From positions 71,874-135,873 of the forward strand of contig CAMBEE010000001.1 of NCBI GenBank assembly GCA_945865665.1: a stretch of 64,000 nt of DNA, in the 5' to 3' direction. The position numbers and the translations under genes were made by a program. Below are positions 1 through 15,868 of this stretch, piece by piece (position 1 is the stretch's first letter; each line of letters opens with the position of its first letter). The notes below the pieces were generated by a model. That model searched no databases and was not told the origin of the DNA. It was given only the letters and a program-made list of their open reading frames with translations. The DNA is from an uncultured Clostridium sp. (GTDB taxonomy: Bacteria > Bacillota > Clostridia > TANB77 > CAG-508).

Positions 1-7
1 GAATTAA

Positions 8-382
8 TCAGATTCAACTAAAGATATAAAAAACAATGTAACTGAAATTGTAAAAGGAATAACAAATGAAATAGATGCAACAGAACCAACTAGAACAGAT
101 AATCAAACAAACAATCAAACAAATACAGTGACAAATTCTGAAACAACTAAAAATACTACTAATGAAAACAAAACAAATACAAATACCACAATTAATAAAT
201 CAAATACCACAACAAATACAACTACAAACAATGAAAAGAACAATAATACTACTGAAAAAAATCATAATACTAGCAATTCAACAGAAACAAATAATAAGAC
301 AAATGCACAGCATCCAAATAATAATATAACTGAAGAAAACTCAACGAAATCAAATGCAACACGAGAAAATACAGGTCAATAG
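8..382 (+). other. N/T-rich low-complexity ORF. Possibly the C-terminal remnant of a secreted protein; a gene fragment is likely.
   Basis: The frame is open from nt 8 to 382 with no in-frame ATG (the track start is GTG at 128). The product is an Asn/Thr-rich tail similar to the PBP1A C-terminal tail in this window. All three frames have stops within the first 30 nt, so no upstream gene reads into it. Confidence 0.25.
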
Positions 383-570
383 TAAGGTATTATAATTCTA
401 GAATATATCTAACATATAGTGTGAACCAGTAGTAGATGAAGAATATAATAAATTGCTATAAGAAAATTGACAAAAATTGCATTTTTTTTTCAAAAAAGCT
501 ATTGCAAAATAAGAATTTTTTTGATATAACAGTTTTGAAGGAAAAAGGTATAGTTTTTAAGGAGGAAGTT

Positions 571-2214
571 ATGCAACAAAAAGATTTGCATAAACTTGGG
601 AAAACTGACTTATTAACTTTGATATATAAGCAAGAAAAGCAAATACAAAAACTAACAAAAGAAATAGAAGATTTAAACCAACAATTAGAGAATAGAACAA
701 TACAGATGAAAGAAGCTGGTTCAATAGCTGAAGCATCATTAAAAATAAACAAGATATTTGAAGCAGCCCAACAGGCTGCAGATGAATATCTAGAAAGCAT
801 AAAAGAAGTTAATAAGCCATCTCATGAATATGCAAAAATTAATAAAAACATAACTAAAGATGAGCTAAGCAACAAAGACGAAATTCTTAGTCAAGATACC
901 TATGAAGAACAAATAAAGCACAAAATAAAAAAAGGTAAAAAACAAACCAAAGATAAAGTAATTAGTAAAGAATTAGTACTTGTAAATAATAAGATTGCGG
1001 TAATAAAACCCAAATTTCTTAAAAAAGTAATAATTCTTTTGTCGTTTATATTTGAAAAATTGTCAAAATTTAAAAGGACATGTGTAGAAAATATCAAAAT
1101 TAAGGTATGTTCATTTAAAAACAAATTGAAGGTAAATTTTACTAAGTTCTATAACAAATGTAAATCAAAAATAGTAGCATGCATAAACAAAATAAAAAAT
1201 ATAAAATTACCTAAGAAAAAAGCTAACAAACAATTAAATACTGAAAACAAATCTAATATAGAAAATTCGTTAATAAATATAAATAAGAGAACAATTTTAT
1301 ACTATAAGATACTAAGAATTTCAAAAAAATATTTGCAAAAACTACAAAATTGCATAATTACAAGTTATGGAGCTTGTATCAAATATTTTAAAAATAAATA
1401 CAAAATGCTTAATAATGCTAGAAACAAGATTCAATTATATCTTAAAAATTTTTTGGAAGGCCTAAAAAAGAAAATTGTAGTACTAAAATCTAAAATTTCA
1501 AATAAGATACATCAGATAAGAAAAACAAATAAAATTAATGAATTTATAAAAAAAGAAAAGCACAGAACTTCAGAATTTATTTCAAAAATAGTTTCTAATA
1601 TTAAAGAAAAAAAGAAACTTAAAGAAGTAAAACAGCAGACACATGAAGCAGTTGTGAAAAACATGGAAATATCCATACCAGAAATAGAAGAAGAACTAAA
1701 GAAAAGAAAAGATAGAAAAATCAAAATAAATTTTATAAAAACATTTGGATATTCCGCAATTGTAATTATTGCATTTGCTATAATTACTTCAACATCATTT
1801 TTTAAAATCTTACAAGTAAGTGGAAGTAGTATGGAGCCAAATTTACATGAGGGAGAATTATTAATAACATCAAATTTTTTCAAATTTGGAAAAGGAGATA
1901 TTATCGCTTTTTATTATAATGATAGTGTATTAATTAAAAGAGTAATTGCAACAGAAGGCGATGTTGTTAATATTGAAGATGATGGAACTGTTTTTGTAAA
2001 TAGTGTAAAGCTAGAAGAAAACTATGTAAAAGAATTATCTTATAAAAATTGTGATATAACATTTCCATATCAAGTTCCTAAAGATAGTGTATTTATTTTG
2101 GGAGATAATAGGAAAGTTTCAATAGACAGTAGAAGCAAGGCAATAGGAAGCATTTCAAAGGATAAAATTATAGGAAAAATAAAATTCAAATTAAATCCCT
2201 TTGTAATTTATTAA
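571..2214 (+). CDS. Signal peptidase I (S26 family, SipW/LepB-like) with an about 400-aa N-terminal coiled-coil and Lys-rich extension, pilus-associated
   Basis: Strong RBS AAGGAGG 6 nt before the ATG at 571. The frame stays open for 1.78 kb in 27% GC DNA. The C-terminus has a TM segment and S26 boxes: GSSMEPNL (Ser), LIKRVIATEGD (Lys) and ILGDNRKVSIDSRS. The N-terminus (MQQKDLHKL...QIQKLTKEIEDLNQQLE) is predicted coiled coil. Confidence 0.7.
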   Translation: MQQKDLHKLGKTDLLTLIYKQEKQIQKLTKEIEDLNQQLENRTIQMKEAGSIAEASLKINKIFEAAQQAADEYLESIKEVNKPSHEYAKINKNITKDELSNKDEILSQDTYEEQIKHKIKKGKKQTKDKVISKELVLVNNKIAVIKPKFLKKVIILLSFIFEKLSKFKRTCVENIKIKVCSFKNKLKVNFTKFYNKCKSKIVACINKIKNIKLPKKKANKQLNTENKSNIENSLININKRTILYYKILRISKKYLQKLQNCIITSYGACIKYFKNKYKMLNNARNKIQLYLKNFLEGLKKKIVVLKSKISNKIHQIRKTNKINEFIKKEKHRTSEFISKIVSNIKEKKKLKEVKQQTHEAVVKNMEISIPEIEEELKKRKDRKIKINFIKTFGYSAIVIIAFAIITSTSFFKILQVSGSSMEPNLHEGELLITSNFFKFGKGDIIAFYYNDSVLIKRVIATEGDVVNIEDDGTVFVNSVKLEENYVKELSYKNCDITFPYQVPKDSVFILGDNRKVSIDSRSKAIGSISKDKIIGKIKFKLNPFVIY

Positions 2215-2251: not shown

Positions 2252-5200
2252 ATGAATAAAGCAATGACTGATATACTAAAAAACAAAAGAAAAACAGTTC
2301 TATTTGTAGTTTTAGCAATCATCTTAGTTCTAGCTACATGGTATAAGTTAAAAGTTCAAGGAATAACTATGACAGAAGATGCTTCATATGAGCAAGTTTT
2401 AGTTTGTAAAAATTCTGATGTGAACCATGTACATTCAGCAGAATGTTATGAAAAAGTAGCAGTTACTAATCAAAATGAGAAAGAAAATGTAGTTCAAGAA
2501 GAAAAAGCGAAGGATACAACAGATTCAAAAGCTGAAGAACAACAAACTAATAAACAAAATGAAACTTCAGACCAAACTAGCAAGACTGAGTTGAAAGAAA
2601 ATACACCAGAAACTTTAAATTCAGAAGAAATTGTAAAAAATGCAGATAGAAACAATAGAATTTCAACGACAGCATTAGAGAATGTTAGACATTCTGAAGA
2701 AAGTGATGCAGTTAATTTATATGTGAATATAGATAATAATTGGACATTAATTGGGGTTTTGAACCAAAAAACTAGTAAAAAAGGGAAAAAATATATTAGC
2801 GCAGATGATGTTACAAAGTTAATTAATAAAAAATTAGATATATCTCCTAATAAAGCTAGTGAATTCAATTTATGTTACTTTGTTGGAACAAAAAATATTT
2901 TCTCTATGACAAATATAAATAAAGATAAATATAATTTAGGAAATGATAATTTATATATAGATGCTTATATAACATCAAATGTCACATCTGAAGATGCCTG
3001 GAGAAATGGAAAAAACAACTTTAAGGTATACTCAATTACAGAGAAAACTGCAGAAAATGTTCCAATAGATGGTACACCTAAATATGTATATGCAACAACA
3101 AATAAACCAGCAACATATCAGCTATCAGATGAACACAATTACTATGTAAATAATGAAAGTGAAATTAAACAAGCTGAAACACAAATTAATATATCTGGTC
3201 CAACAGTATTAAAACAAGTTCCGGTTGAAAAATGTACAGTTACAATTGTTAGCGTGGATGGAACAGTTGCTACAAAACAAGTAAATAAGGGTTCAAAATT
3301 TACACTAGGAAGTAACCTAAAATGGAAGGTTGGAGATAGCACAGAATTAACAAATGGTGGAACACAAATAACTGTAAATGAAAATATTACAGTTACAGAA
3401 TCAAATGAAATAAAAATAAACTATACAGTAGATACATCAACAACTGCAACAAATATTAATGCAAGATATAAATACGATGGAATTGCAATACCAACAGTTC
3501 AGGGAAGTAATACATATTCAACAACAATCACATATAATAGTGGAACAACAACAGAACAACTTTCAGACAAATATGTAACACCATATAATAGTGCTGCTAC
3601 AGTAACAAAGGATAGAATAATTCTTGAATTTGCCGGTTGGAAAATAAATGGTGGTTCTACAGTTGTAAACGCACAAACAGAACTTAGCTGGAATGAATTG
3701 TATTCATATGCCCAAAATGGAGAAATTAATTTTAGCACAATTTGGAACCATATTAATAACAACAAGAAATACGTAAATTTCTATATGAGATATGATTCAG
3801 TAGCAGTAGATACAAATGGAAACATTACAGGACAAGACGCAAATAAATATACCCCATCACTATGGGCAAGTTATGTTGGAAATAGTGATTTAGCAAGAAA
3901 TATAGCTGATACTTCTTCAGACAATTCATATGGAGCTAATAAAGCAATTAGACAACTAGAAGGTGTAAAGGAAAATTCTGCATATATTTATAGTATTCCA
4001 ACAGATGAATATATCTTAAGCCAATTAAAAAAATATTCAAATGATCTTTCAATTGATGGTGAAAAAGTATCAGTAGATCAATTGGATTTGGAACATTATG
4101 AAATAAGATGGTATGTATTTAAAAATCAACCTGATTGTTGGCATATAGATGGAAAATTAGTTAGAAAAGAAGGAAAAATGACTGTAAGTAAAACATTTAA
4201 AGGTTCAAAAACAGCAATAGAAGCGGTAACTGGATATTCTTTTGATACTAAAAATTCTACTAATTCTAGATATCATTTAGAAATGAAAGGTGGAAATGCT
4301 GTTGCAACAACAACAGATTTGTATCTAGATTCTGCAAAACTAGAAGATAAGTCAACAACACAAGATGGAGTTACAACATATGAATTAAAATACACATGGG
4401 AAGTTAATGTTAAATATGGAATACATTATACAATTACTGAAAAAAATTACAATGTAGATAGATATATTACAAATGCCGTATATAATATTGTTGATCCAGA
4501 GAACACAAAATATAAAAAAGTATATAATTCAGATGGAACATATTATTATGAAAAAGACTCAGAAGGAAACTTTATTACAACATACGAGAATCAATCTAAA
4601 GGTTCAACAACTGCTGATAGTGCAAATGTTATAGGTGTAAATAATTATGCAATAGATAGTGGGGAAGTTATAGATAACTCAAAACTAATAAATGTAAACT
4701 TTACAAACACATATGCACCAACATCAGCAATAACAATAAAGAAAGATGACTCTGCAACGAATAATGGGCTTGCTAATGCACAATTTTCACTATATGAAGT
4801 AAATAATGGTAATATAGATAAAAATTCACCAATAAAATTTACTTATAATGAATCAATTTACAAGTATAATGAAAATGGAGACAAAACTGTATTAACGTCG
4901 CCATCTGGTGGATCAATAATTTTAGATAACTTACCAACAGGTAAAACATATAAATTAGTTGAAATTTCTGTTCCAGAAGGATATGATGGAAACAGTTCAG
5001 TAGAGGTTACTCTTACAACACAAAATGATGGAGTTGTAGTTCCAGTAATTTCAAAAGGAACAGGAAAAGAATATGACGATAAAAACAAAGTACTAGAAGT
5101 TGATAATGCTTCTAAATTGACAGAAGTAAAAGTAACAAAAGTATGGCAAGATGTACCAGAAAAATATGTTAAAGATGTAATTGTTGAATTATATTTAAAC

Positions 5201-6058
5201 AATATGCCAATTTCAAATTATAATTTAAAATATGATTTAAATGGCGACGGAAAAATTGATGACAAAGACATTGTTACAATTCAAAAGCAAGTAACCTTAA
5301 ATAAAGAAAATAATTGGTCTAACACATGGAAAAACTTACCATTATATATTGATGGAAAAAAAGCAATATATTCAGTAAGAGAAGTACAAATAGGAGACAT
5401 AAAAGCAGTTACAAATGGCCAATATAATTCAGAAAAGGGAACATGGGAAAGTTATGATGCATATACACAATATAGGGCACATACAACTGAACAGAAAGAA
5501 ACAACTGACTCAAATGGAAATGTAACACAAGTTTCATTTGATTTAGTAAACACGATACATTTAGTAAAAATAAATATAAACAAAATTAGTCCATTAGGAT
5601 TGCCAATTGATGGTGTAAAATTCAGATTACAAAAAATAGATGATTTAGGAAACATAGATTCTACATTTGAAGCTAAAGAGCTTGTAACTTCATTAGATGG
5701 AAAGTTAAGCTTTGTTGATTTAGAATATAATACAAAATATGTAATAACAGAAATTGAAGGTAATAAGGGATATTATCTTGACAGTACACCAATTTATGTA
5801 ACAATAAATAAAGGTGAACAAGGGCAGGAAGATACTTTAACTTTATATAAAGACAATACATTTGAGGAAGAAGCACAAAAAGGCAACTATGAGTATGTGT
5901 CATTAAACGAATCAAAAGACACATTGAATATTATTAATATTTCACATACACCAATGCCAAAGGCTGGAGGATGTGGTGTTTATGGTTTTTACATTTTGGG
6001 TATTATTCTAATGGGATGCTCAATAATTATAATATATTTAAGAAAAAATAAAATATAG
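2252..6058 (+). CDS. Large surface/pilus tip adhesin (about 1270 aa) with CnaB-type isopeptide domains, a dockerin-like Ca-binding motif and a non-canonical C-terminal sorting signal
   Basis: RBS AAAGGAG before the ATG at 2252 (MNKAMTDIL...). N-terminal TM/signal anchor. CnaB-like segments (VTKVWQDVPEKYVKDVIVELYL, YVITEIEGNKGYY). Motif DLNGDGKIDDKD. The C-terminus is HTPMPKAGG followed by a hydrophobic TM and RKNKI, which is sorting-signal architecture without LPXTG. Confidence 0.7.
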   Translation: MNKAMTDILKNKRKTVLFVVLAIILVLATWYKLKVQGITMTEDASYEQVLVCKNSDVNHVHSAECYEKVAVTNQNEKENVVQEEKAKDTTDSKAEEQQTNKQNETSDQTSKTELKENTPETLNSEEIVKNADRNNRISTTALENVRHSEESDAVNLYVNIDNNWTLIGVLNQKTSKKGKKYISADDVTKLINKKLDISPNKASEFNLCYFVGTKNIFSMTNINKDKYNLGNDNLYIDAYITSNVTSEDAWRNGKNNFKVYSITEKTAENVPIDGTPKYVYATTNKPATYQLSDEHNYYVNNESEIKQAETQINISGPTVLKQVPVEKCTVTIVSVDGTVATKQVNKGSKFTLGSNLKWKVGDSTELTNGGTQITVNENITVTESNEIKINYTVDTSTTATNINARYKYDGIAIPTVQGSNTYSTTITYNSGTTTEQLSDKYVTPYNSAATVTKDRIILEFAGWKINGGSTVVNAQTELSWNELYSYAQNGEINFSTIWNHINNNKKYVNFYMRYDSVAVDTNGNITGQDANKYTPSLWASYVGNSDLARNIADTSSDNSYGANKAIRQLEGVKENSAYIYSIPTDEYILSQLKKYSNDLSIDGEKVSVDQLDLEHYEIRWYVFKNQPDCWHIDGKLVRKEGKMTVSKTFKGSKTAIEAVTGYSFDTKNSTNSRYHLEMKGGNAVATTTDLYLDSAKLEDKSTTQDGVTTYELKYTWEVNVKYGIHYTITEKNYNVDRYITNAVYNIVDPENTKYKKVYNSDGTYYYEKDSEGNFITTYENQSKGSTTADSANVIGVNNYAIDSGEVIDNSKLINVNFTNTYAPTSAITIKKDDSATNNGLANAQFSLYEVNNGNIDKNSPIKFTYNESIYKYNENGDKTVLTSPSGGSIILDNLPTGKTYKLVEISVPEGYDGNSSVEVTLTTQNDGVVVPVISKGTGKEYDDKNKVLEVDNASKLTEVKVTKVWQDVPEKYVKDVIVELYLNNMPISNYNLKYDLNGDGKIDDKDIVTIQKQVTLNKENNWSNTWKNLPLYIDGKKAIYSVREVQIGDIKAVTNGQYNSEKGTWESYDAYTQYRAHTTEQKETTDSNGNVTQVSFDLVNTIHLVKININKISPLGLPIDGVKFRLQKIDDLGNIDSTFEAKELVTSLDGKLSFVDLEYNTKYVITEIEGNKGYYLDSTPIYVTINKGEQGQEDTLTLYKDNTFEEEAQKGNYEYVSLNESKDTLNIINISHTPMPKAGGCGVYGFYILGIILMGCSIIIIYLRKNKI

Positions 6059-6074: not shown

Positions 6075-7583
6075 ATGAAAACATTTAAAAAATTATTTAC
6101 AGTTTTAGCAATTATTTTGTTTGCTATAATTTCATTATTACCAGCAAGAAGTTTATCTGCTGAAAACGACCTAACAATCACAGTAACAGGAGATGTAAAA
6201 GGTAGAACACTTTCTGTTTATAAATTATTTGATTTAACAGTAACAGGAACAGCTGAAAAACCAGTTTACAATTATACTTGGGCTGGAGCTTCAGAAAAAT
6301 TCTTTAGTGATAAAAAATATGAAACAGTTGCTAAAGCAACAGATTACTTAAAAGGACTTGAAAATAACTCAACAGCATTAACTACAATTGCTGAAGAATA
6401 TTACCAATATTGCAAAGATAATGGTCAAACAGCAATTGCTAAAAAACAAGGAATTGACACAACAGAAGCAGTATTCACTGTACCAGGTCAAGGATATTAT
6501 CTAGTTTATGATGAAACAGAAATAAATGAAACAGGTAGAGCTAGAGCTGCTGCTATGTTATCAAATGTTACAAAAAATGCAGAAGTAGCATTAAAAGCTG
6601 AGAAAACAACAGTTGAAAAAATGGCTGATAAAGCAACAGCAGCTGTTGGTGAAACAGTAAATTACACAGTAACATCAAGAGTTCCAAATGTAGTAGGATA
6701 TGACTCATACAAATTTATAGTAACAGATACATTATCAAAAGGATTAACATTAACTGACAATACAGTTGTTACAGTTACAATTGGTGGTGAAACATATACA
6801 GCTTGGACAAAAAATGTTACTCCTAACGATGGTGGTACAACAACATTAACAATAACATTTAATCCAACAGAATTTGCAAAATTAAAAGATAAAACAGGTG
6901 CAGAAATAAAAATTACATATTCTGCAGTATTAAATAATGATGCAGCAACAATCTTAGATAACACAAACGAAGTAAAAATTGAATATTCAAACAACCCAAC
7001 AACAGATGGAACAGGAACAACAAACACAGATGTAATTCACGTTTATACATACAAAATTGACTTCACAAAGAGAAATACAGCTGGAGTAGCATTACCAGGA
7101 GCAAAATTTGTATTAAAATTATCAGATGGAAAATTTGCAACATTTGATGAAAAAGGTGTATTTACAGGAACAGTTGCAACAAAAGAAGAAGCAACAGTAT
7201 TAACATCAGATGATAATGGTAATATTGCAATATCTGGATTGAAAGCTGGAACATATACATTAATAGAAACAGAAGCACCATCAGGATATAGCGTTCCAAA
7301 CTTTGAATTTGTATTTACAATTAGCCAAAAATTAGATGAAAATGGAAAATTAGAAACAGCAACATTTGACTATAAAACAGATGAAAATCTTAAAGCAGCT
7401 AAAGGATATATGACAGATAAAACAAATACATCAGCTTCATTTGCAATAGAAGTATTAAATGCTAAAGAAGGATCATTACCAACAACAGGTGGAATTGGAA
7501 CAACAATATTTACAGTTGCAGGTATAGCTGTAATGGCTGTTGCAGTTGTAGCATTAGTTGCTCACAATAAAAAAAATGATTAA
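6075..7583 (+). CDS. Major (backbone) pilin, LPXTG-anchored
   Basis: Signal peptide. E-box YTLIETEAPSGY. Pilin-motif-like VIHVYTYKIDFTKRN with a conserved Lys. C-terminal LPTTGG followed by a TM and HNKKND. RBS AAAAGGA. Confidence 0.8.
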   Translation: MKTFKKLFTVLAIILFAIISLLPARSLSAENDLTITVTGDVKGRTLSVYKLFDLTVTGTAEKPVYNYTWAGASEKFFSDKKYETVAKATDYLKGLENNSTALTTIAEEYYQYCKDNGQTAIAKKQGIDTTEAVFTVPGQGYYLVYDETEINETGRARAAAMLSNVTKNAEVALKAEKTTVEKMADKATAAVGETVNYTVTSRVPNVVGYDSYKFIVTDTLSKGLTLTDNTVVTVTIGGETYTAWTKNVTPNDGGTTTLTITFNPTEFAKLKDKTGAEIKITYSAVLNNDAATILDNTNEVKIEYSNNPTTDGTGTTNTDVIHVYTYKIDFTKRNTAGVALPGAKFVLKLSDGKFATFDEKGVFTGTVATKEEATVLTSDDNGNIAISGLKAGTYTLIETEAPSGYSVPNFEFVFTISQKLDENGKLETATFDYKTDENLKAAKGYMTDKTNTSASFAIEVLNAKEGSLPTTGGIGTTIFTVAGIAVMAVAVVALVAHNKKND

Positions 7584-7652: not shown

Positions 7653-8513
7653 ATGAAAAAGAAATTCAACATAAAAAAACAATTACCTAATATCATATTA
7701 GCAATCGTATTTATTGTTGGTCTTTGCATATTTTTATATCCTTCAGTCAGTGATATAATAAATTCATGGCTTCAAAGCAAAGAAATCAGTAAATATGAAA
7801 ACCTTGTAGCAGGCTTATCAACTGAAGAATATGATAAAATGCTATCAGATGCAAGAGAATATAACAAGAAATTAGTAGGAAATAATTTAACACAGAACAT
7901 AGAAAAATCAAAAAATACAAATTATAACCAACTACTTTCTCTAGATAATACGGGAATAATGGGATATTTATATATAAGTAAAATAAATGTTAGATTACCA
8001 ATATATCATGGAACAGATGCATCAGTTTTACAAAATGGTATTGGACATTTAGAAGGTTCATCATTACCTGTTGATGGAGAAACACAACATGTAGTTATAT
8101 CAGGACATACGGGACTACCATCATCAAAATTATTAACTGATTTGGTTGAGCTAGAAGTAGGTGACACATTTAAGTTAGACATACTTAACCAAAGATATAC
8201 ATATGAAGTAGATCAAATACTTGTAGTTGAGCCAAATGAGACCGATGCATTAGAATTAGTAGAAGGTAAGCAATATGCAACAATAATTACATGTACTCCT
8301 TATGGAGTAAATACACATAGACTATTAGTTAGAGGAAAACTTAAAGATGAAACTGTAGATGCTAACATTTCAGGAGATGCAATAATAATAAATTCTAAAA
8401 CATTAATACCAATAATTTCAATTCCGTTAATTATAATCTTATTTATAATTATGATTAGTATAAGAAGAAAAAGAAAGGAAAGGGAAATAGATGAAGAAGA
8501 TAATATTAAGTAG
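7653..8513 (+). CDS. Class C (pilus-polymerising) sortase
   Basis: N-terminal TM anchor. Catalytic His (ISGHTG), TLxTC motif IITCTPYG, conserved Arg (HRLLVRG). C-terminal TM lid. RBS GAAGGAGG. Confidence 0.85.
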   Translation: MKKKFNIKKQLPNIILAIVFIVGLCIFLYPSVSDIINSWLQSKEISKYENLVAGLSTEEYDKMLSDAREYNKKLVGNNLTQNIEKSKNTNYNQLLSLDNTGIMGYLYISKINVRLPIYHGTDASVLQNGIGHLEGSSLPVDGETQHVVISGHTGLPSSKLLTDLVELEVGDTFKLDILNQRYTYEVDQILVVEPNETDALELVEGKQYATIITCTPYGVNTHRLLVRGKLKDETVDANISGDAIIINSKTLIPIISIPLIIILFIIMISIRRKRKEREIDEEDNIK

Positions 8514-9144
8514 TTTAATTTTTATAATACTTGTAGCTAGTTTAGTTGGAACAGTATTAGCTGTAAATTTGGGGACGATTCAATTTGTGGCAATAGATAA
8601 TACTGACTCAAAAACAATAGAAAATTTAGAAGTTTCAGTATATCAAGTAAGTACACAAGATGAACAGGGGAATTTTAAATTTGCAGCTGGATTTGAAAAT
8701 TGTACATTAAACATAGAGGACTTATCAGAAAGAAATTTACAAAATTTAAAAGAATATGCAAAAGCAAATGCAAATCCAGTATCTATAAAAACAACTAATT
8801 CAAATGGTAAATTCAGTTTGAATAATTTAGATTTAGGAGTATACTTATTTGTACAAGAAAACAAAGAAAACGAAATCACTATGCAAACAATGTTAATCTC
8901 AATTCCTGAATTGAATAAAGAAAATGGCTTGAAATATAATGTTACAGTAAAACCTAAAATACTAAACAAAGAAATAGTAGATAAAAATGAAAACCAAAAA
9001 AATAGTACACTAGTACAAGATGACAAACTGCCATATACAGGAGTTTTAAATTGGCCTATACCTGTTCTTGTAGTTGTAGGAATAGTTATTTTTTGTATAG
9101 CCTGGCTAAAAGTTTACGGTACATCTAAAAAAAAAGTAAAATAG
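8491..9144 (+). CDS. Small LPXTG pilin (minor/basal pilin candidate), signal is LPYTG
   Basis: Signal peptide. C-terminal KLPYTG followed by a TM and KKKVK. The start overlaps the end of the sortase gene, implying translational coupling. Confidence 0.6.
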   Translation: MKKIILSSLIFIILVASLVGTVLAVNLGTIQFVAIDNTDSKTIENLEVSVYQVSTQDEQGNFKFAAGFENCTLNIEDLSERNLQNLKEYAKANANPVSIKTTNSNGKFSLNNLDLGVYLFVQENKENEITMQTMLISIPELNKENGLKYNVTVKPKILNKEIVDKNENQKNSTLVQDDKLPYTGVLNWPIPVLVVVGIVIFCIAWLKVYGTSKKKVK

Positions 9145-9155
9145 GCATATTTTTT

Positions 9156-9752
9156 ATGATATTTGCTGTCTTGATGTTAGCTAGTGCAGGAATATTATTA
9201 TTATACAACTCATCAGAAGATACAAGAGTTGAAGATGATAACCTAGAAACAGTTACACAATTAGAAAACATTTTAGAAAAGCAAAATGATAATCAAAATA
9301 ATGTGCAAAATTCAGAAAAAACAGAGAATACTGAAAATAATGCTATATCTTTAAATAATAATAGGACAAGTATTAACATTAAAGGAAATAACTATATTGG
9401 AATTATCTATATACCAATATTAAATAATCTTGCTTTGCCTGTTATAGAAGATTGTACAGTAGATAACTTAAAAATATCTGTATGTAGATATTCAGGAAAT
9501 ATTAATGAAAATAACCTTGTTATTGCAGGACATAACTATAAATCATCTTTTGGAAAACTTTCAAGACTTACTGTTGGAAATCTTGTATATTTTAAAGATG
9601 TTAATGGAAATGTATATAAATATCATTGCAAAGCAATTGAAACCTTATCTCCTAAGTCTGTAAATGAAATGATAACTGGAGATTGGGACTTAACTTTATT
9701 TACTTGTACCTATAATGGTGCTAATCGTATTGCATATAGATTTGAGTTGTAA
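9156..9752 (+). CDS. Sortase, second copy (small class B/D-like transpeptidase)
   Basis: N-terminal TM. Catalytic His (LVIAGHNY), Cys (LFTCTY) and Arg (RIAYRFEL). No obvious RBS. Confidence 0.7.
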   Translation: MIFAVLMLASAGILLLYNSSEDTRVEDDNLETVTQLENILEKQNDNQNNVQNSEKTENTENNAISLNNNRTSINIKGNNYIGIIYIPILNNLALPVIEDCTVDNLKISVCRYSGNINENNLVIAGHNYKSSFGKLSRLTVGNLVYFKDVNGNVYKYHCKAIETLSPKSVNEMITGDWDLTLFTCTYNGANRIAYRFEL

Positions 9753-10001: not shown

Positions 10002-10957
10002 ATGCAGAAGCAAAATATATATGTAGCAATAGATTTAAAAAGTTTTTATGCTTCAGTAGAATGTCGAGAAAGAGGATTAAACCCTCTAACAACTAATCTG
10101 GTAGTAGCAGACAGTAGTAGAACAGAAAAAACAATATGTCTTGCTGTAAGTCCATCTCTAAAACAATATGGAATACCAGGAAGAGCAAGGCTATTTGAAG
10201 TAGTTCAAAAAGTAAGAGAAATAAATACAAATAGAAGATATAATGCACCTGGTCATATATTAAAAGGAAAATCTTATGAAGACATAGAACTAAAAAAACA
10301 TCCAGAATATGAACTAGATTATATTATAGCACCACCTCAAATGAAAAAATATATGAAGTATAGCACTAATATATATAATATTTATCTAAAATATTTTTCT
10401 CCAGATGATATATGTGTTTATTCCATAGATGAAGTTTTTATTGATGTAACACATTATTTAAAAACCTATCAAATGAAAGCAAGTCAATTAGCCACAAAAG
10501 TTATACATGATATATATAAACAAACTGGAATTACAGCAACTTGTGGAGTAGGAACAAATCTATATCTTGCAAAAATTGCAATGGACATAGTAGCAAAACA
10601 TGCACATGGTACGATAAATTTAGACCATAAAACTTCATCGAATAAACTTATTGGTGAATCAGTTATGAAATTATATAATAGAATAATTGATAAGCGTTTA
10701 TTAACTCGGAGAATTAATATAACTGCAAATAATGTAATTAGTGAAGAACAGGCTGAAAAAGAAAATAAATTTGAACAAATTGATTTATTTACTGATTATT
10801 CAGAAGTAGAAAGAAAAAAAAGAGCAAAATCTTCAAAGATCTATACTAGATATAAAGAAAAAATATGGTAAAAACGCAATTCTAAAAGGAATGAATTTTG
10901 AAGATGGAGGAACAACAATAGAAAGAAGTGAACAAGTAGGAGGTCATAAAGGTTAAT
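10002..10957 (+). pseudogene. Y-family (UmuC/UvrX/ImpB-like) translesion DNA polymerase, degraded
   Basis: The N-terminus YVAIDLKSFYASVECRE is the Y-family palm motif. The protein is far shorter than the about 420-aa norm. A +1 frameshift lies inside an A8 run (10813-10820); the shifted frame continues as KKYGKNAILKGMNFEDGGTTIERSEQVGGHKG, the typical family C-terminus. A promoter TTACAA-17-TATAAT lies upstream at about 9943-9971. Confidence 0.6.
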
Positions 10958-11121
10958 GGGAAAATACGATGATATTATAAATTTAAAAAGACCTGTATCA
11001 AAGCATCCAAAAAATTGATATTTACAAACAAAAAATGATAATGCAAAATGGTGCAATAATTGATATTAAAGAAATTATTGATATTAATAGTGATATTTTT
11101 AAAAATTTAAAATTTGAATAA
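10956..11121 (+). pseudogene. YolD-like protein (usual partner of UvrX/UmuC in Firmicutes mobile elements), frameshifted
   Basis: MGKYDDIINLKRPVSKHPKN then a stop inside an A6 run. A second frame continues as KIDIYKQKMIMQNGAIIDIKEIIDINSDIF. It sits directly downstream of the Y-polymerase, as in uvrX-yolD pairs. Confidence 0.35.
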
Positions 11122-11193
11122 AAAAAGAACTAGAGCAGAAGTGAATCACAATGATAAATATATTTGTATTTCATTTTTAGGCTAGTTCTTTAT

Positions 11194-11454
11194 TTAAATA
11201 TTATCAATAAAATCAGAAACTAAATCTTCAAGTTTAACATTAAAAACTTTAGCAAAACCACATAATTCATAATCAACAACAGTTCTTTTTCCAGTTTCAA
11301 TTTTATAAATCTCTTGTTTATGAATATCAATTCCGTGAAGCATAAGCTTGTCTGATAAACTTTGATATGAATAATTATTTAATTCACGATAATATCTAAT
11401 CTTATCCTTAACAATATTAAGACTATTTTCGATATTTGTATTTCTTTTACTCAT
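11194..11454 (-). CDS. XRE-family helix-turn-helix transcriptional regulator
   Basis: RBS AAGGAG before ATG (MSKRNTNIENSL...). HTH segment SYQSLSDKLMLHGIDIHKQEIYKIETGKR. A hairpin with a T-run lies about 30-90 nt downstream on the - strand. Confidence 0.65.
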   Translation of the reverse strand: MSKRNTNIENSLNIVKDKIRYYRELNNYSYQSLSDKLMLHGIDIHKQEIYKIETGKRTVVDYELCGFAKVFNVKLEDLVSDFIDNI

Positions 11455-11616
11455 ATTGAAAACTCCTTTTTTACTTATTTTTCCACATTGCATTGATTTT
11501 ATAATATAATTTTGATAGAATATAACCCACAGAGGTTATATATTATTTATGTTACAAGTTTCGACAAATTTTTAAGATACAATTGTTATAAAATTGAATA
11601 AGAAAGAGGTCAAAAA

Positions 11617-11883
11617 ATGGAAAAAATAAAAGTAATAATTGCAGATGATATACAAGCTATTGTAGAAAGTAATAAACGAATTGTTGCATCATTTGATAAT
11701 GTTGAGGTTATTGTGACTGCATACAATGGCCAAGATGAGTATGAGATGATAATAAACTTACAACCAGATTTTGTAAGCAATAGAAGAGAGGTAGAAGTAG
11801 ATATGGAAAAGTGTAAAAAAAAGAATACAGAACATTGCACAAAATCAAAGTTTTGTGCAAAAAGGAATAGGAGTAAAATATAA
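11617..11883 (+). pseudogene. Truncated response-regulator receiver-domain fragment
   Basis: MEKIKVIIADDIQAIVE...IVTAYNGQDEYEMIINLQPDFV is a CheY-like receiver N-terminus. It runs into repeat R1 after about 60 aa. There is no output domain. Confidence 0.5.
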
Positions 11884-12731
11884 AACCATAGTTATATGGT
11901 CCTACCCATGAAATCTTGCTACTCCTTTAATAAAGCCTATTTTAGCATCTTATACTAACAACAAACTATACTACTTTTATATAAAAACCTCTTAAAATTG
12001 ATTCTGAAGCTTCATTAATTTAGCTTTTACTTGGTTGGATTTTTTTTCATTATTGTAACTACATATTTTCAAAAAAATTTTATATAACTTTAGATTATTT
12101 TATCAAAATTTCACAAATCCCCATATTTCAGTATTTTGCTTGATTTTGCAGACAACAAGTTATATGCCTTAAAAATAAAAACGCCTTAAAATCGATTCTC
12201 GTGCGTCACTTTTTTAGCCATTTTTAAGCATTTTTAATAAATGCCTAAAAATCAGCATTTCTACTTAAATAATATAATAAATATTAGTTTTTTTAATTTA
12301 CACATCTAATTTAAAACATATAACTTGTTAAATAAAATATTAAAATGTCTTAAAATCTATTTTGACGTGTCATAAATATAAAATTATATTATGGATTTGT
12401 AATCTAAAATTATATAATAGTTATTCAAAAATTTTTATAAAATTATAATGAAAAATTTATTTACAAACATTTTTAACAAATGTTCGTTTTTTAAAAATTA
12501 ATAATAAAAATTCACTTTACACAAAATTTTTAAATTTTTAATTATTAGATTTTAATTATAAAATTTTTTAAAATTCTAATTCTAAATTTTAATATTAATT
12601 TTTTGAAAAATTTTATTTTATATCTTTTAATAGTATAAAAAATTTCTTTATGTATTTATTTTTTTGTTTTAAAATTTATTTAAAATTTCTATTTTTGTAT
12701 TTTCTCAAAAATAGCCTATTCCCCTATTCCC
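11846..12731. repeat. Non-coding repeat module A (R-box + three degenerate about 60-bp units + about 400-bp unit)
   Basis: Homologous at about 75-90% to 13486-14208. It ends with ctcaaaaatagcctattcccctattccct. The units share cttaaaatcgattct. Confidence 0.8.
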
Positions 12732-12795
12732 TATTGATTTTTCTACGTATAGTAATTATTATTTATTGTTCTTCATTCTATTTATAAGTATGTTA

Positions 12796-12822
12796 AAAGA
12801 GATGGTACTACCATCTCTTTTA
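12796..12822 (-). terminator. Bidirectional rho-independent terminator
   Basis: aaaagagatggtactaccatctctttt is a perfect 10-bp stem with A/T runs on both sides, 3' of the 12864-13286 gene. Confidence 0.6.
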
Positions 12823-12863
12823 GTCTGAGTTAATTAAATATTATCTATTGAAGTTGAAATTTC

Positions 12864-13286
12864 TTATACTCCAATAAGATAAGTAAAAATTTGACCTTCT
12901 ATATACCTGTTTGAAAATGCAAAGTCATGATTCTTATCTAGAAGATATTTTAATTTAAGTTTATGCTGTTTACAGAATCTTTGCATATCTTTATGTGTAA
13001 TATGTAATTTAGAGCCATTTTCTAGAATGATATATTTATTAGCATTATCTGTTGGACATAACATACAAGGAGAAGCGAGATCTATACTAATAAATTTTCT
13101 TCTTCTAAAACCTATTTTTCTATAAGGTTTAGAAGAAAGTTCAATTAACAAATTGCTAATATACTTCTCAATTATATTCCAATCTTCTGGTGACCGAATT
13201 AGCTTTTTTTCTTCCTCCTTACGTTTTTCCTTTTCTAATTGTTCATGTTCTCTTAACTCAACTCTTAATTGTTTTCTTAAATTCAT
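12864..13286 (-). CDS. Hypothetical protein with a CxxC...HxxH...CxxH zinc-finger/HNH-like motif
   Basis: RBS AAGGAGG 8 nt before ATG. Contains SPCMLCPTD...HITHKDMQRFCKQH. Charged coiled-coil N-terminus. Flanked by repeat modules A and B. Confidence 0.45.
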   Translation of the reverse strand: MNLRKQLRVELREHEQLEKEKRKEEEKKLIRSPEDWNIIEKYISNLLIELSSKPYRKIGFRRRKFISIDLASPCMLCPTDNANKYIILENGSKLHITHKDMQRFCKQHKLKLKYLLDKNHDFAFSNRYIEGQIFTYLIGV

Positions 13287-13485
13287 AAAAAAACCTCCTT
13301 TAAATGTTGTATTTACAAAAGTGATAGTTATATATTAACACATTTTACATAATATTTCAATATAAATCAATTAAACTTCACATTTTTAGTATCTAATATT
13401 AAACTTAATTTCACATTTTATATATTGTTTAAGTGAATTTTTTATAAAAATTTTAGAAATTCAAAACAAGTTTTTGGTTTGTATT

Positions 13486-14208
13486 ATCAAAGTTTTGTGC
13501 AAAAAGGAATAAGGGTAAAAATACAGACCTCGCATTTAGGTCCTACCCAGTACTTTCTAGGCCTTCTAGCCATTAATACATATATTATTACTATTATTAT
13601 CTTATTATTTAATATTGCATCTTTTTTTATCTAATGTTATTCAACATCTTATATTACTTTATATATTTATCATTTATTTATTTTTAATCCTTAAATTTTA
13701 AATTTATATCTTAATATTTTTTATAATTTCAGATCCTATCTTATAATTTTATCAAAATTGCTCAAAACGCCTAAATGTCCATATTCGACGTATTTTGCAG
13801 ACAACAAACTTGTTTGATTAAATATAAAAATGTCTTAAAATCGATTTTAACGTGTCATAAATATAAAATTATATTATGGATTTGTAATCTAAAATTATAT
13901 AATGATTATACAAAAAAATTATTAATTTATAATGCAAAAATTTATTTACAAACAATTTTAACAAATGTTCGTTTTTGAAAATTACATATATAAAATTAAC
14001 TTTACACAAAATTTTAAAATTTTTAATTATTAGATTTTAATTATAAAATTTTTATAAATTCTAATTCTAAATTTTAATATTAATTTTTTGAAAATTTTTA
14101 TTTTTATCTTTTAATCATATAAAAAATTTCTTTATGTATTTATTTTTTGTTTTTAAAATTTATTTTAAATTTGTATTTCCTCAAAAATAGCCTATTCCCC
14201 TATTCCCT
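13486..14208. repeat. Non-coding repeat module B (R-box + unit + about 400-bp unit), a direct repeat of module A
   Basis: Module A is at 11846-12731. The same end motif cctattcccctattccct is present. Confidence 0.8.
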
Positions 14209-14235
14209 ACTTGTGATATATATTTAATTATAAAA

Positions 14236-14272
14236 AAACTGAGAATATCCTTTAATATTCTCAGTTTTTTAT
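14236..14272 (-). terminator. Bidirectional rho-independent terminator
   Basis: aaaaaaactgagaatatcctttaatattctcagtttttt has a 10-bp stem with a T-run. Confidence 0.6.
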
Positions 14273-14301
14273 AAAACCTAAAAAGCATCTAATATTGTAT
14301 A

Positions 14302-14688
14302 TTAACTTATGAATTTTATTTTTGCACCACATTCGCAGCAACTATGTTCATATGTATATACATAAGCATAGCATATTGGACAATGATAATGTCCTTCTTC
14401 ATCTTTTTCTTCTACACAGTATTCTTCTTGTTCATCTTTCATAATGTTTTCATACAATTTTTCGGCTTCTTTTTTCTCTTGTTCAGTTACTGGACTACAA
14501 TCTTCAAAATCTTTAAAAAAGGATTCTAATTCAGTATTATTATCAAGTAAAACTTTTTTAGCTTTAGGGTATAATTTCATCCATTGTCTTAATGTTTTCT
14601 TAGAATTTGAAAATTTTGTTAATATTTTTATGTCGATACCAATTGCCGATTTCGTTTCCTTTTTTATAATTCCTAGATATTTATCCAT
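14302..14688 (-). CDS. Hypothetical acidic protein with a C-terminal zinc ribbon
   Basis: Ends with HCPICYAYVYTYEHSCCECGAKIKF. No family assigned. It is the last gene of a - strand string that follows the toxN-family gene. Confidence 0.45.
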   Translation of the reverse strand: MDKYLGIIKKETKSAIGIDIKILTKFSNSKKTLRQWMKLYPKAKKVLLDNNTELESFFKDFEDCSPVTEQEKKEAEKLYENIMKDEQEEYCVEEKDEEGHYHCPICYAYVYTYEHSCCECGAKIKFIS

Positions 14689-14707
14689 AATATATTTACC
14701 TCCTTAA

Positions 14708-14929
14708 CTAATCAGTTTTCGAGTTGTTATTAAAGGTATTATTAAAATACCAACATGCCCATGGGATATATACAATGCTAATTCCTATTATTTTACTTGT
14801 GTCAAAAGGACTATTCAATTCAATTGGCACAATATAAACTACTGTAAGATATAACATTACTAGTCCCATATACATCAGAAATTTGTGCATAAAATTATTA
14901 TACTGTTTACTCATATTTTCCTCCTCCAA
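14708..14929 (-). CDS. Small 2-TM membrane protein, hypothetical
   Basis: Its only long ORF is closely packed between its neighbours. Hydrophobic segments LMYMGLVMLYLTVVYIV and IIGISIVYIPWACWYF. Confidence 0.35.
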   Translation of the reverse strand: MEEENMSKQYNNFMHKFLMYMGLVMLYLTVVYIVPIELNSPFDTSKIIGISIVYIPWACWYFNNTFNNNSKTD

Positions 14930-14944
14930 TATTAATTGCGTTGT

Positions 14945-15154
14945 CTACAGGTTACTCTTTACAACATCATCTTGAAAATTTTCACGTGCCATATTGAATT
15001 GGTCTGTATTTTGTTTAGTCTTTTCTCTAATTGCTTTATCCAATTCTTCCATACGAGCAGATGATACTGGTATTCTTGCTTTAGGTGGTGTACGAGATAC
15101 AGCTGACATGTAATTTAGTTTTACTTTTTTAATAGGTGTTTTCTTTTCTGACAT
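14945..15154 (-). CDS. Small basic protein, hypothetical (possible DNA-binding/RHH-like)
   Basis: 69 aa with a Lys/Arg-rich N-terminus and MEELDKAIREK. GGAGG upstream. Confidence 0.4.
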   Translation of the reverse strand: MSEKKTPIKKVKLNYMSAVSRTPPKARIPVSSARMEELDKAIREKTKQNTDQFNMARENFQDDVVKSNL

Positions 15155-15349
15155 ATTTATTCCTCCTTAAAATAATAATTTTACAATAGTTGCTTTATAA
15201 TAAAACTATGATGAAAAATAGGAAAGTAAAAATTCAATTAGCTTTTAGCTAAGATTTATGTGAATTATATCATTATTTGAGCTAAAAGTAAAGATAAACA
15301 CAATATGTATCCATTATGTGTTTATTTTCTTTCTTACTATATCATATAT

Positions 15350-15841
15350 TTATTTGATCGTTAACTGTTCTAATATTCCATCAATATCAGGAAAAATAAT
15401 ATTTTTCATTCCATGATTATATAAATTTAAAACCTTAGTAGCTTTATATATTATTTCTTCTTGCAATTTGTTTGACAGTTTTATAACAACTTTATTTTTT
15501 ATATATTGACTTTCTATATATTCCTCTGTTACTGGAAACATATTTTGTATTAAGAAAGCACTGTATGTATTTGCAACATTTCCAAAAACAATAGTATCAA
15601 TTGAAGGTTTCTTTCCTAATTTTATTTGTTTTTTTATTTTATTATCATAGATTCTTTGATACTTATCTACTTTTGTACTAACAGGAATAAACCAAATAAT
15701 ATTATTATATTCTTTACTTTTAAAGCAATAATAGCATGGTCTTTTATTTCCATTTTCTTTATTTTGCATTAGTTCTGGATCATCTATAACATCAAAAAAC
15801 GAATCTTTAATAAAATAAAAACATCCTATATCTATTTGCAT
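15350..15841 (-). CDS. ToxN/AbiQ-family endoribonuclease toxin (type III toxin-antitoxin / abortive-infection family)
   Basis: 163 aa. RBS AAGGAG 9 nt upstream. My alignment to AbiQ/ToxN is from memory: FYFIKDSFFDV..NKRP..IIWFIPVSTK..IDTIVFGNV..LIQNMFPVTEEYI against MKFYTI..FD.KV..RP..APLSSPK..GVINLNNMIPV. Preceded by tandem repeats and a hairpin. Confidence 0.6.
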   Translation of the reverse strand: MQIDIGCFYFIKDSFFDVIDDPELMQNKENGNKRPCYYCFKSKEYNNIIWFIPVSTKVDKYQRIYDNKIKKQIKLGKKPSIDTIVFGNVANTYSAFLIQNMFPVTEEYIESQYIKNKVVIKLSNKLQEEIIYKATKVLNLYNHGMKNIIFPDIDGILEQLTIK

Positions 15842-15868
15842 ATTTATATTACTCCTTATATTATGAGA

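Follow-up and report, generated by a model that had tools for sequence, protein, structure and literature searches.

The window, a 64,000-nt stretch of DNA, carries a genuine gene on the + strand (571–2214) that heads a sortase-pilus operon. Its 547-aa product consists of an N-domain (aa 1–85), a linker (aa 86–365) and a signal peptidase I (aa 366–547), with the following features:

559–565, + strand: Shine-Dalgarno sequence AAGGAGG, 5 nt before ATG 571 (read from the sequence)
571–2214, + strand: fused Orf-Lep gene, 547 codons plus stop
571–825, + strand: N-domain, aa 1–85, predicted cytoplasmic, helical and coiled-coil-like, with conserved core AGSIAEASLKINKIFEAAQQAADEYL; homologue of the 'orf' of GBS PI-2b
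826–1665, + strand: hypervariable basic linker, aa 86–365, 280 aa (composition and predicted structure)
1666–1743, + strand: conserved juxtamembrane tail, predicted cytoplasmic, aa 366–391, EISIPEIEEELKKRKDRKIKINFIKT (motif lPs..qLE.ELkRe.Yk.rY...LRST)
1744–1803, + strand: single transmembrane anchor, aa 392–411, FGYSAIVIIAFAIITSTSFF (Kyte-Doolittle windows >1.9; modelled helix 369–413)
1804–2211, + strand: S26 catalytic domain, predicted extracytoplasmic, aa 412–547 (PF10502, TIGR02227, structure alignments)
1828–1830, + strand: catalytic Ser420 (GSSMEP aligns with GSSMEP of 4ME8)
1936–1938, + strand: general-base Lys456 (LIKRVIA aligns with VKRVIG of SpsB)
2101–2133, + strand: box E, GDNRKVSIDSR, G511–R521 (read from the sequence)

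In the ORF reading of the window, the frame from 436 to 2214 is uninterrupted over 592 codons, a run without a stop that would occur by chance with P ~5e-21 at the window's composition, bearing out the earlier note's view that one open frame of this size is very unlikely to be fortuitous. The 1.78 kb quoted there is correct for the open frame; the gene itself measures 1.64 kb, as a start at ATG 571 yields a product of 547 rather than 592 aa. A methionine equivalent to ATG 571 begins 61 homologous proteins (M-Q-x-K-x-L-H-K-L-G-K-T), and from this and the Shine-Dalgarno sequence we read ATG 571 as the functional start, the extended ORF beginning at 436 probably being unused. Scans for promoters and terminators gave signals no stronger than in shuffled sequence, and an Rfam scan of the entire 64-kb window returned zero RNA matches.

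Judged by its residues, the C-terminal part is a complete and catalytically intact bacterial P-type signal peptidase I, closest to Lep of Streptococcus agalactiae (GBS), with which aa 366–544 align ungapped over residues 4–182 at 41% identity (E 4e-47). It was matched by Peptidase_S26 (PF10502; E 1.2e-31, 110.4 bits, cut-off 22.9), by TIGR02227 (118.8 bits, cut-off 47) and by the solved signal peptidases 4ME8 (E 3e-14), SpsB 4WVG (2e-13) and 4NV4, with weaker matches to the SipA and LepA structures 4N31 (2e-9) and 4K8W (1e-8). Ser420-Met421, Lys456-Arg457 and box E are invariant across 35 fused homologues. The enzyme had previously been placed among SipW/LepA-type peptidases, a class assignment that has to be dropped: the model for the SipW-like ER/archaeal type, TIGR02228, yields 26.5 bits where 51.85 are required and covers the N-terminal half of the domain only, and retention of Ser420 and Lys456 rejects the non-catalytic SipA/LepA type. 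The juxtamembrane tail motif is common to ~80 unfused peptidases encoded beside N-domain genes and is collinear with the N-terminus of GBS Lep; E373, E375, R379 and K380 within it are nearly invariant in fused homologues. There is one hydrophobic segment in the protein, immediately ahead of box B, and the strongly basic flank upstream of this anchor points to an N-in, C-out orientation.

The N-domain belongs to a family of 3465 cluster representatives (E <=1e-3), mainly stand-alone proteins of 83–250 aa, whose core, AGSIAEAxLxxNxxFEAAQxAAxxYL, is present in the window protein. AlphaFold2 predicts a helix over residues 11–80 (pLDDT 88), and aa 17–78 share 48% identity (E 4e-15) with the Orf protein of GBS PI-2b. 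That the 90-aa N-domain gene of S. agalactiae is the 'orf' of PI-2b follows from exact matches of the published ORF1/ORF2 qRT-PCR primers inside it. For the N-domain itself, neither the window protein nor 10 stand-alone members gave a Pfam, NCBIfam or PDB sequence match. The DivIVA/Wag31 scaffold family did not match the window protein, and some stand-alone members scored 21–31 bits, chiefly across their coiled-coil tails, where its cut-off is 260; we rejected DivIVA/Wag31, ATP-synthase-b and FliH as N-domain families because such weak scores, far under the cut-offs, reflect coiled-coil composition.

The linker is rich in lysine (24%), isoleucine (13%) and asparagine (10%), with a net charge of +53 and a pI of 10.2, and is predicted to be disordered at 81–148 and to form long helices over 149–209 and 227–346, according to a full-length AlphaFold2 model of low confidence (mean pLDDT 59) that we used for secondary structure alone. 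Fused homologues span 369–775 aa, and across them the linker has a mean identity of 23% with 31% gaps, against 72–75% identity in the flanking domains. A tandem-repeat search of the gene's DNA found nothing significant, just trivial A-rich micro-repeats, so the linker of the window protein is not a recent tandem array. The general anatomy proposed in the earlier note (helical N-domain, basic region, transmembrane segment, catalytic S26 domain, all in a pilus locus) is thus confirmed, and its description of the extension as a coiled coil is apt for the N-domain, the sole convincingly coiled-coil-like part; the Lys-rich 280 aa are a fast-evolving, weakly conserved helical spacer.

Downstream of the fused gene lie five genes, all on the + strand:

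2252–6058, + strand: tip adhesin with SpaA domains and a PKAGG-type sorting signal (domain matches, sequence)
6075–7583, + strand: major (backbone) pilin with an LPTTG sorting signal (GramPos_pilinBB, SpaA, Gram_pos_anchor; NF033902, 102 bits)
7653–8513, + strand: class C (pilus-polymerising) sortase (NF033745, 254.9 bits, cut-off 160)
8491–9144, + strand: small LPYTG-anchored protein, probably the basal pilin (sequence; NF033902 E 2e-10, below cut-off)
9156–9752, + strand: second, short sortase (PF04203 E 1.8e-15; under the NCBIfam class cut-offs)

The adhesin probably starts at ATG 2252, with AAGGAG at 2242–2247, and the automated ORF listing gives TTG 2234. Its N-terminus is unusual: a basic n-region leads into ...LATWYKLKVQGITMTED, and the Cys/His motif C..HVHSAECY comes after this; ...WYKLKVQGITMTED together with that motif places it in the class of LILPAIT or WxLKLxGI N-termini. 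From gene order and this shared unusual N-terminus, the bases of the assignment, the tip adhesin is likely to be the preferred substrate of the peptidase.

To see the N-domain in its wider genomic setting, we used 120 listed loci from a one-genome-per-species collection, retrieved by a degenerate DNA pattern encoding G-S-I-A-E-A...F..AQ.AA..Y; the sample is arbitrary rather than exhaustive, and with a best N-domain identity of 51% to the window protein it includes no close relative of it. These loci hold 121 N-domain genes: an S26 gene follows 96 of them, one is part of a fusion, 14 have no such neighbour and for 10 the locus ends too early to tell. An S26 gene thus comes directly after the N-domain gene in 96 of the 111 informative cases listed, often overlapping it, and the two are separate genes in 96 of the 97 peptidase-linked loci. 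Ser and Lys are retained in 94 of these 97 N-domain-linked peptidases. The gene after the peptidase mostly encodes a large surface protein, and at least one feature of the unusual N-terminus (LILPAIT/WxLKLxGI or Cys/His) was present in 60 of 77 listed loci; sortase or LPXTG genes come next in 26 of the 42 listed loci with sufficient flank. Some other family members have an LPXTG anchor or a receiver-like region at the N-terminus as partner, and together with the 14 of 111 genes that lack an adjoining peptidase these indicate that the N-domain is not exclusively a peptidase accessory. Seen against this sample, the extension of the window protein is the usual genomic neighbour of the peptidase, joined to it in cis as a Rosetta-stone fusion. 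The suggestion that the extension tethers the peptidase to a cytoplasmic partner was close, with the difference that the partner itself, an Orf homologue, has been fused on.

The fusion recurs, both domains being found in one frame in 61 protein clusters at 90% identity. It arose at least twice and was split again in a sister clade. A GC-rich fusion of separate origin, joined by a short acidic linker, occurs in a Ruminococcaceae MAG. In the sister clade the gene is divided into two or three ORFs whose frames have shifted within the linker; an ORF for a 199-aa peptidase of normal size is kept, and that for the N-part remains open across ~60% sequence divergence. Tethering as such is thus dispensable. 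Two separate orthologous genes had been named beforehand as an observation that would speak against the fusion; they do occur, in most other lineages and in this split clade, and they explain where the fusion came from rather than refuting it.

We put at roughly 70% the probability that the gene encodes a natural fusion of a cytoplasmic Orf-type protein with a Lep-type peptidase dedicated to the pilus operon, acting in the roles proposed below. An artefact of assembly or sequencing, in which a missed stop or a frameshift joined two neighbours, is scarcely credible and has effectively been refuted already. The unfused two-gene layout is the rule in other lineages, linker frames are shifted in the sister clade and the linker DNA contains four homopolymer runs (A or T) of 7 nt, all of which speak for such an error; however, at 90% identity the window protein clusters with others into a set of 30 members, all 15 listed are 547 aa long, and these 15 occupy ~96 contigs assembled independently (ENA, Logan, NCBI), which tells against the artificial fusion that the earlier note named as a possible refutation. 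The 61 clusters with both domains in frame weigh against it as well, as do the unfused pairs of the listed loci, whose genes abut or overlap without any coding spacer resembling the 280 aa. It is also unlikely, though less so, that aa 1–365 are evolutionary baggage from the loss of a stop codon and that the protein works as an ordinary pilus-locus peptidase whose N-terminal tail is inert. The hypervariable linker is biased towards Lys, Ile and Asn as expected from AT-rich drift, and the sister clade re-broke the frame and kept its peptidase; yet within the fused clade the ungapped N-domain is conserved like the catalytic domain (mean identity 72% against 75%), with 21 invariant positions that include the core residues G50, I52, A55, F63, A66, A70 and Y73, and the N-part ORF of the split clade has stayed open despite its divergence.

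We consider it distinctly improbable that the extension binds nucleic acid or serves in regulation, making the protein a membrane-tethered regulator or 'DNA repair protein' that couples pilus export to expression. The charge of the linker would suit such a role, NCBI names one stand-alone N-domain homologue 'DNA repair protein', and in two family members (P0127 and P0134) the N-domain is preceded by a long region that looks receiver-like by eye and has no Pfam or NCBIfam match. Against this, searches of Pfam, NCBIfam and PDB sequences returned zero DNA-binding or repair domains, and the conserved neighbours encode surface proteins and a peptidase of the secretory pathway rather than repair functions; the tails of stand-alone homologues are mostly acidic or Glu/Ala-rich coiled coil, which makes the basicity of the linker a lineage-specific trait. 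Very improbable, too, is a non-catalytic pilus chaperone like SipA/LepA of Streptococcus pyogenes, a reading that accords with the location in a sortase-pilus operon and with the similarity to 4N31 and 4K8W, but which has to contend with an intact and invariant Ser420, Lys456 and box E and with the better scores of the active peptidases 4ME8 and SpsB, SipA/LepA being defined by the loss of catalytic residues (PMC7900414).

Under the favoured reading of an Orf-Lep fusion, the N-domain and spacer would lie in the cytoplasm, a single helix would cross the membrane and the catalytic domain would face outward. There the peptidase would remove the atypical signal peptide of the tip adhesin, and probably also those of the pilins, allowing the class C sortase to polymerise the pilins. 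The Orf-like domain, helical and probably dimeric, would act with the juxtamembrane tail at the cytoplasmic face, where its role may be to bring about dimerisation of the peptidase, to place it at the site of precursor export or to gate it there, and covalent tethering would make the partnership between Orf and peptidase obligatory and 1:1 in the window lineage.

What is new here is the single-gene, fused form of the known orf-lep module. In the literature we found no described function for Orf and no report of the fusion. Taken together, the fusion, the near-obligate pairing (~100 species listed) and the tail motif offer the first concrete, testable hypothesis for the GBS 'orf', namely that, at the inner face of the membrane, the Orf-type protein and the peptidase are physical working partners. 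Several streptococci depend on pilus-operon signal peptidases to assemble their pili. More tentatively, and with odds that we place a little short of even, the Orf protein, the peptidase with its tail motif and the LILPAIT/Cys-His adhesin may constitute an unrecognised, dedicated system of export and processing, widespread among Clostridia, streptococci, Erysipelotrichia and Coriobacteriia, in which Orf binds the tail, and possibly the n-region of the adhesin, and positions or gates cleavage. If so, the fused gene is the Rosetta stone for a physical partnership, and the label 'DNA repair protein' is a misannotation wherever it is used; we saw it on one stand-alone member, and it is likely to be a misnomer for a family that counts at least 3465 sequence clusters. 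The probable dedicated substrates would be giant adhesins whose signal sequence is atypical. What is gained is a corrected annotation and a lead for experiments rather than a new biological principle.

Among known systems, the SipW protein of Bacillus subtilis is a signal peptidase devoted to the fibre proteins that it processes, with which it shares an operon (tapA-sipW-tasA). The window locus resembles it in placing a dedicated peptidase within a fibre operon; SipW differs in being of the ER/archaeal type and in having no N-terminal coiled-coil extension, whereas the window protein passes the bacterial model. Housekeeping Gram-positive signal peptidases have very short cytoplasmic N-termini. 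Such enzymes (SpsB 4WVG, 4ME8, 4NV4) share with the window protein the catalytic domain, the Ser/Lys dyad and the single N-terminal anchor, but they are without the lPs..qLE.ELkRe.Yk.rY tail and without an Orf partner. In Actinomyces oris, the signal-peptidase antagonist SafA, a transmembrane protein of small size with a link to the housekeeping sortase, protects that sortase from cleavage (PMC9282373). The likeness of LepB2/SafA to our locus is one of concept, a specific type I signal peptidase tied to pilus or sortase biology and modulated by a small, genetically linked protein; in sequence and topology SafA is unrelated to the cytoplasmic coiled-coil N-domain.

Closer in setting are SipA/LepA of the S. 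pyogenes FCT-2/3/4 loci and SipA of Streptococcus pneumoniae PI-2, which share the S26 fold and are encoded in sortase-pilus operons. They are reported to be required for pilus polymerisation (PMC7900414, PMC4049620), and the GAS SipA/LepA proteins have lost their catalytic residues and are thought to act as chaperones (PMC7900414), in contrast to the window protein, which keeps Ser/Lys and box E. Neither PMC7900414 nor PMC4049620 reports a coiled-coil partner or extension for SipA. The closest parallel is the PI-2b operon of S. agalactiae, whose first two genes, orf and lep, are co-transcribed (Perichon et al. 2017, PMC5249243). Pilus assembly in PI-2b and PI-2 reportedly needs Lep homologues, a statement that for GBS Lep is made at second hand (PMC7900414, citing Perichon 2019). 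Both the GBS pair and the window gene stand at the 5' end of their operon, where the next gene encodes a large adhesin whose unusual N-terminus is of one class in the two species and pilins and sortases come after it, and the catalytic residues are kept in Lep as in the window protein. The difference is one of gene architecture: in GBS, two genes of 90 and 189 aa overlap by 17 nt; in the window, one 547-aa polypeptide joins the two partners through a 280-aa basic spacer.

The window gene lies within a single open frame of 592 codons at 436-2214 (+) in the ORF listing; with a stop expected about every 13 codons at the base composition of the window, the chance of 592 open codons is ~5e-21. ATG 571 is the likely start: this coordinate, proposed in the earlier note, agrees with a Shine-Dalgarno-like AAGGAGG at 559-565, 5 nt 5' of the ATG, and with the N-terminus M-Q-x-K-x-L-H-K-L-G-K-T shared at the equivalent position by all full-length homologues. 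The C-terminal 150 aa of the 547-aa product match Pfam Peptidase_S26 (E 1.2e-31) and TIGR02227 'signal peptidase I' (118.8 bits vs a cut-off of 47); the ER/SipW-type model TIGR02228 scored 26.5 bits, below its cut-off of 51.85. The sole hydrophobic segment (aa 392-411) would anchor the protein N-in, C-out, and is followed by the boxes GSS420M421EP, LIK456R457VIA and G511DNRKVSIDSR521, which match those of the solved peptidases 4ME8, SpsB 4WVG and 4NV4 in alignment and are invariant among 35 homologues. The genes of the operon are:

Genes of the pilus operon in the window
571-2214 (+), fused gene encoding the signal peptidase
2252-6058 (+), SpaA-domain tip adhesin, first gene 3' of the fusion
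Second gene 3', LPXTG major pilin (NF033902, TIGR04226)
Third gene 3', class C sortase (NF033745, 255 bits)
Fourth gene 3', small LPYTG protein
Fifth gene 3', second sortase

The S26 match, the anchor, the catalytic boxes and the downstream pilin and sortase genes therefore bear out the earlier description of a signal peptidase that belongs to a pilus locus and has a long extension at its N-terminus.

The 5' edge of the window (1-382, +) holds the C-terminal part of an upstream ORF, almost all Asn/Thr/Lys/Glu low-complexity sequence (...TNTNTTINKSNTTTNTTTNNEKNNNTT...), which stops 188 nt 5' of the peptidase gene; four loci of relatives (L005-L007, L133) have a divergent 164-167 aa Spo0A_C-domain gene there instead. 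Right after the operon, 10002-15850 holds an apparently truncated 289-aa impB/mucB/samB (Y-family polymerase) ORF and ~4 kb of very AT-rich DNA (GC 0.20) with short ORFs only; an XRE-like 99-aa ORF occupies the minus strand at 11194-11493, and gene orientation and GC skew change sign near 12 kb. The polymerase-like ORF, the AT-rich stretch and this switch suggest that the pilus locus adjoins accessory or mobile DNA.

The first 85 aa (the N-domain) returned 3465 proteins at E<=1e-3 and 1122 at E<=1e-10 from 1.84 billion cluster representatives, nearly all small (83-250 aa), with the domain N-terminal and a tail that varies but is Glu/Lys/Ala-rich or coiled-coil. A leucine-zipper-like helix comes before the conserved core, AGSIAEAxLxLNxVFEAAQxAAxQYL, and AlphaFold2 predicts one long helix (pLDDT 88); searches of Pfam, NCBIfam and PDB sequences gave no match. 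The sole source name in the family, NCBI 'DNA repair protein' for one Oscillospiraceae member, found no support. Variants of the architecture also occur. The stand-alone P0149 (164 aa) carries the N-domain, without a signal peptide, followed by an acidic linker and a bona fide LPETG sorting signal with hydrophobic segment and basic tail (TIGR01167, 28.4 bits vs a cut-off of 15.9). This fits poorly with a protein confined to the cytoplasm; P0149 is a tail-anchored variant or else an oddity of gene fusion. In P0127 and P0134 the domain is C-terminal to a 215-260 aa region, receiver-like by eye and without a Pfam or NCBIfam match. At L019, L091 and L093, extra coiled-coil repeats (EKDRQL..., ~200 aa) separate zipper and core in proteins of 420-560 aa, still 5' of a peptidase gene at L019.

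The genomic context of stand-alone N-domain genes is decisive for what the extension is. In two of three lineages looked up, the small gene lies directly 5' of a signal peptidase I of normal size (193-197 aa), with genes for an adhesin, a SpaA pilin and a sortase coming next. A one-genome-per-species collection was scanned with a degenerate DNA pattern built on the domain core, and the 120 loci listed, containing 121 N-domain genes, were annotated with custom HMMs. The loci listed come from Lachnospiraceae, Oscillospiraceae, Ruminococcus, Blautia, Dorea, Faecalibacterium, three streptococci, Coriobacteriia and Erysipelotrichaceae.

Context of the 121 N-domain genes
S26 gene immediately next, frames usually overlapping or within tens of bases: 96
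Fused to an S26 gene: 1
Without an S26 gene: 14
At a locus end, uninformative: 10

Thus 97 of the 111 informative genes among the loci listed have an S26 partner, adjacent or fused. The catalytic Ser and Lys are kept in 94 of these 97 peptidases, which have in common a cytoplasmic tail motif just before the anchor, lPs..qLE.ELkRe.Yk.rY...LRST (aa 366-391 in the window, EISIPEIEEELKKRKDRKIKINFIKT). Where >=4.5 kb of downstream sequence was available (42 loci), sortase or LPXTG genes follow further on in 26, a lower bound because the detectors were crude. In a minority arrangement (L011 6001-8282, and L012), a family gene without an adjacent peptidase precedes two genes whose products match no Pfam domain: the first encodes 130 aa with a hydrophobic segment at the C-terminus, the second a polytopic membrane protein of 464 aa. 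Membrane proteins other than the peptidase may also pair with the coiled-coil protein.

Streptococcus agalactiae ATCC 13813 (L121) was among the sampled loci; its 90-aa N-domain gene (1345-1617) and the peptidase gene after it (189 aa, 1601-2170) overlap. The PI-2b pilus operon of this species (GBS) starts with orf and lep, transcribed from 37 bp 5' of orf (Perichon et al. 2017, PMC5249243), and the qRT-PCR primers ORF1/ORF2 of that study (supplementary file 4) have exact matches in L121, both within the N-domain gene (1396-1414 and 1540-1558). Orf aligns with window aa 17-78 (48% identity, E 4e-15) and Lep 4-182 with aa 366-544 (41%, gapless, E 4e-47); the window gene is therefore Orf, a spacer and Lep in a single polypeptide. 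Such a fusion is classic Rosetta-stone evidence, and points to a putative Orf-peptidase partnership, physical or functional.

A search of 5.8 billion proteins gave 76 relatives of the window protein, 61 of them with N-domain and S26 in one chain (369-775 aa). Its 90%-identity cluster has 30 members; among the matches listed, 15 of 15 are 547 aa, from ~96 contigs of independent ENA, Logan and NCBI assemblies. Relatives such as P0005 share the gene order of the window operon: the fusion, then adhesin, pilin, sortase, small pilin and a further sortase. With the fused form recurring in so many independent assemblies, an assembly or sequencing artefact, against which the earlier note had cautioned, is extremely unlikely. 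That note had also held that orthologues in two genes would speak against a fusion; the separate adjacent pair occurs in 96 genes, and fused chains still in 61 relatives.

Within the window's clade, mean identity is 72% for the N-domain, 54% for the tail and 75% for S26, all gapless; with conservation of the N-domain equal to that of the catalytic domain, an inert leftover tail is an unlikely reading. The linker (aa 86-365) has 23% identity and 31% gaps, with total protein lengths of 369-775 aa. In the window it is 24% Lys, 13% Ile and 10% Asn (pI 10.2, net +53), without a significant DNA tandem repeat in the gene; a low-confidence full-length AlphaFold2 model (mean pLDDT 59) has disorder at 81-148 and 347-368 and helices at 149-209 and 227-346 (pLDDT 63-71). 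The linker of the fused relative P0044 is a Glu/Lys repeat of a kind typical of single alpha-helices, and tails of stand-alone relatives are often acidic or Ala/Glu/Arg coiled coil. We read the linker as a spacer, its sequence free to drift towards AT-rich codons, and set aside a DNA-binding module. That the extension is a nucleic-acid-binding regulator is improbable, as no such domain was found and basicity is restricted to certain lineages; a non-catalytic SipA-like chaperone, with the catalytic dyad intact, is more doubtful still. We favour an Orf-like partner joined to an active peptidase.

A second fusion, in a GC-rich Ruminococcaceae MAG (L108), is only 45% identical, and its linker, short, acidic and Pro-rich, leads directly into the tail motif; fusion therefore arose at least twice. 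In a sister clade the frame is broken again, with N-part ORFs of 387-566 aa (P0066, P0068-P0074) and C-part ORFs of 339-552 aa (P0031-P0035). The frame changes twice at L003, where the last ORF (199 aa, TTG start) is a normal-size peptidase keeping tail, anchor and catalytic domain; at L133 the split ORFs overlap by 29 nt. The P0073 form recurs as an identical allele in 60 indexed blocks of the assembly collection, its N-part open despite ~60% divergence. These split forms are real alleles, not errors, and both fusion and its reversal are tolerated, as one would expect of proteins working together.

The sister-clade gene lies in two or three ORFs, with frame changes in the linker (L001-L004, L133), and could reflect stable fission, pseudogenisation or phase variation; IS66- and IS4-family transposase genes are directly 5' of it in L001 and L002. 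In one metagenomic relative, on the P0068 contig (L134 5001-11701), the linker of the fused gene is interrupted by a block of at least 5 kb, which encodes a flavoprotein, Abi_2 and two serine recombinases and resembles an integrated element or an intervening one. At the matching position in L003 (1780-1880), a GC-rich 33-bp unit, GCAAAAACGGAACCGACCCCGAATGTCCCAAGG, is present three times in tandem (AKTEPTPNVPR in one frame), and could be a scar or attachment site.

The large surface protein next after the peptidase has a distinctive N-terminus, with at least one of its features in 60 of 77 loci (L014-L129): a long basic n-region, then ...VVFCTTYALILPAITxE or ...FWSLKLTGIxxAGE (more loosely, ...YALILPAIT(M/L/V)E or ...W.LKL.GI..AGE), often followed by one or more, possibly metal-binding, CGxEEHxHTxxCY Cys/His motifs. 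The window adhesin has the FWSLKLTGI-type form (LATWYKLKVQGITMTED...C..HVHSAECY, within 2252-2500), a region covered by no Pfam or NCBIfam model. We propose that the peptidase would trim this atypical signal peptide, with the pilin signal peptides as probable further substrates, ahead of polymerisation by sortase. We also propose that the Orf-like helix, probably dimeric, may work with the cytoplasmic tail on the enzyme, by dimerising, positioning or gating it.

Neither pilus-operon signal peptidases nor the orf-lep pair is new; our literature search found no description of the fused form, of a family-wide pairing of Orf with tail-motif peptidases, or of a link to adhesins with an unusual N-terminus. 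The kind of result will not surprise specialists, and its value lies in an annotation correction and a sharp experimental lead on an uncharacterised protein family. Pilus assembly needs the signal-peptidase homologues of GBS PI-2b and pneumococcal PI-2, according to a review (PMC7900414). Whereas GBS PI-2b makes Orf and Lep from two overlapping genes, the window encodes both in one polypeptide.
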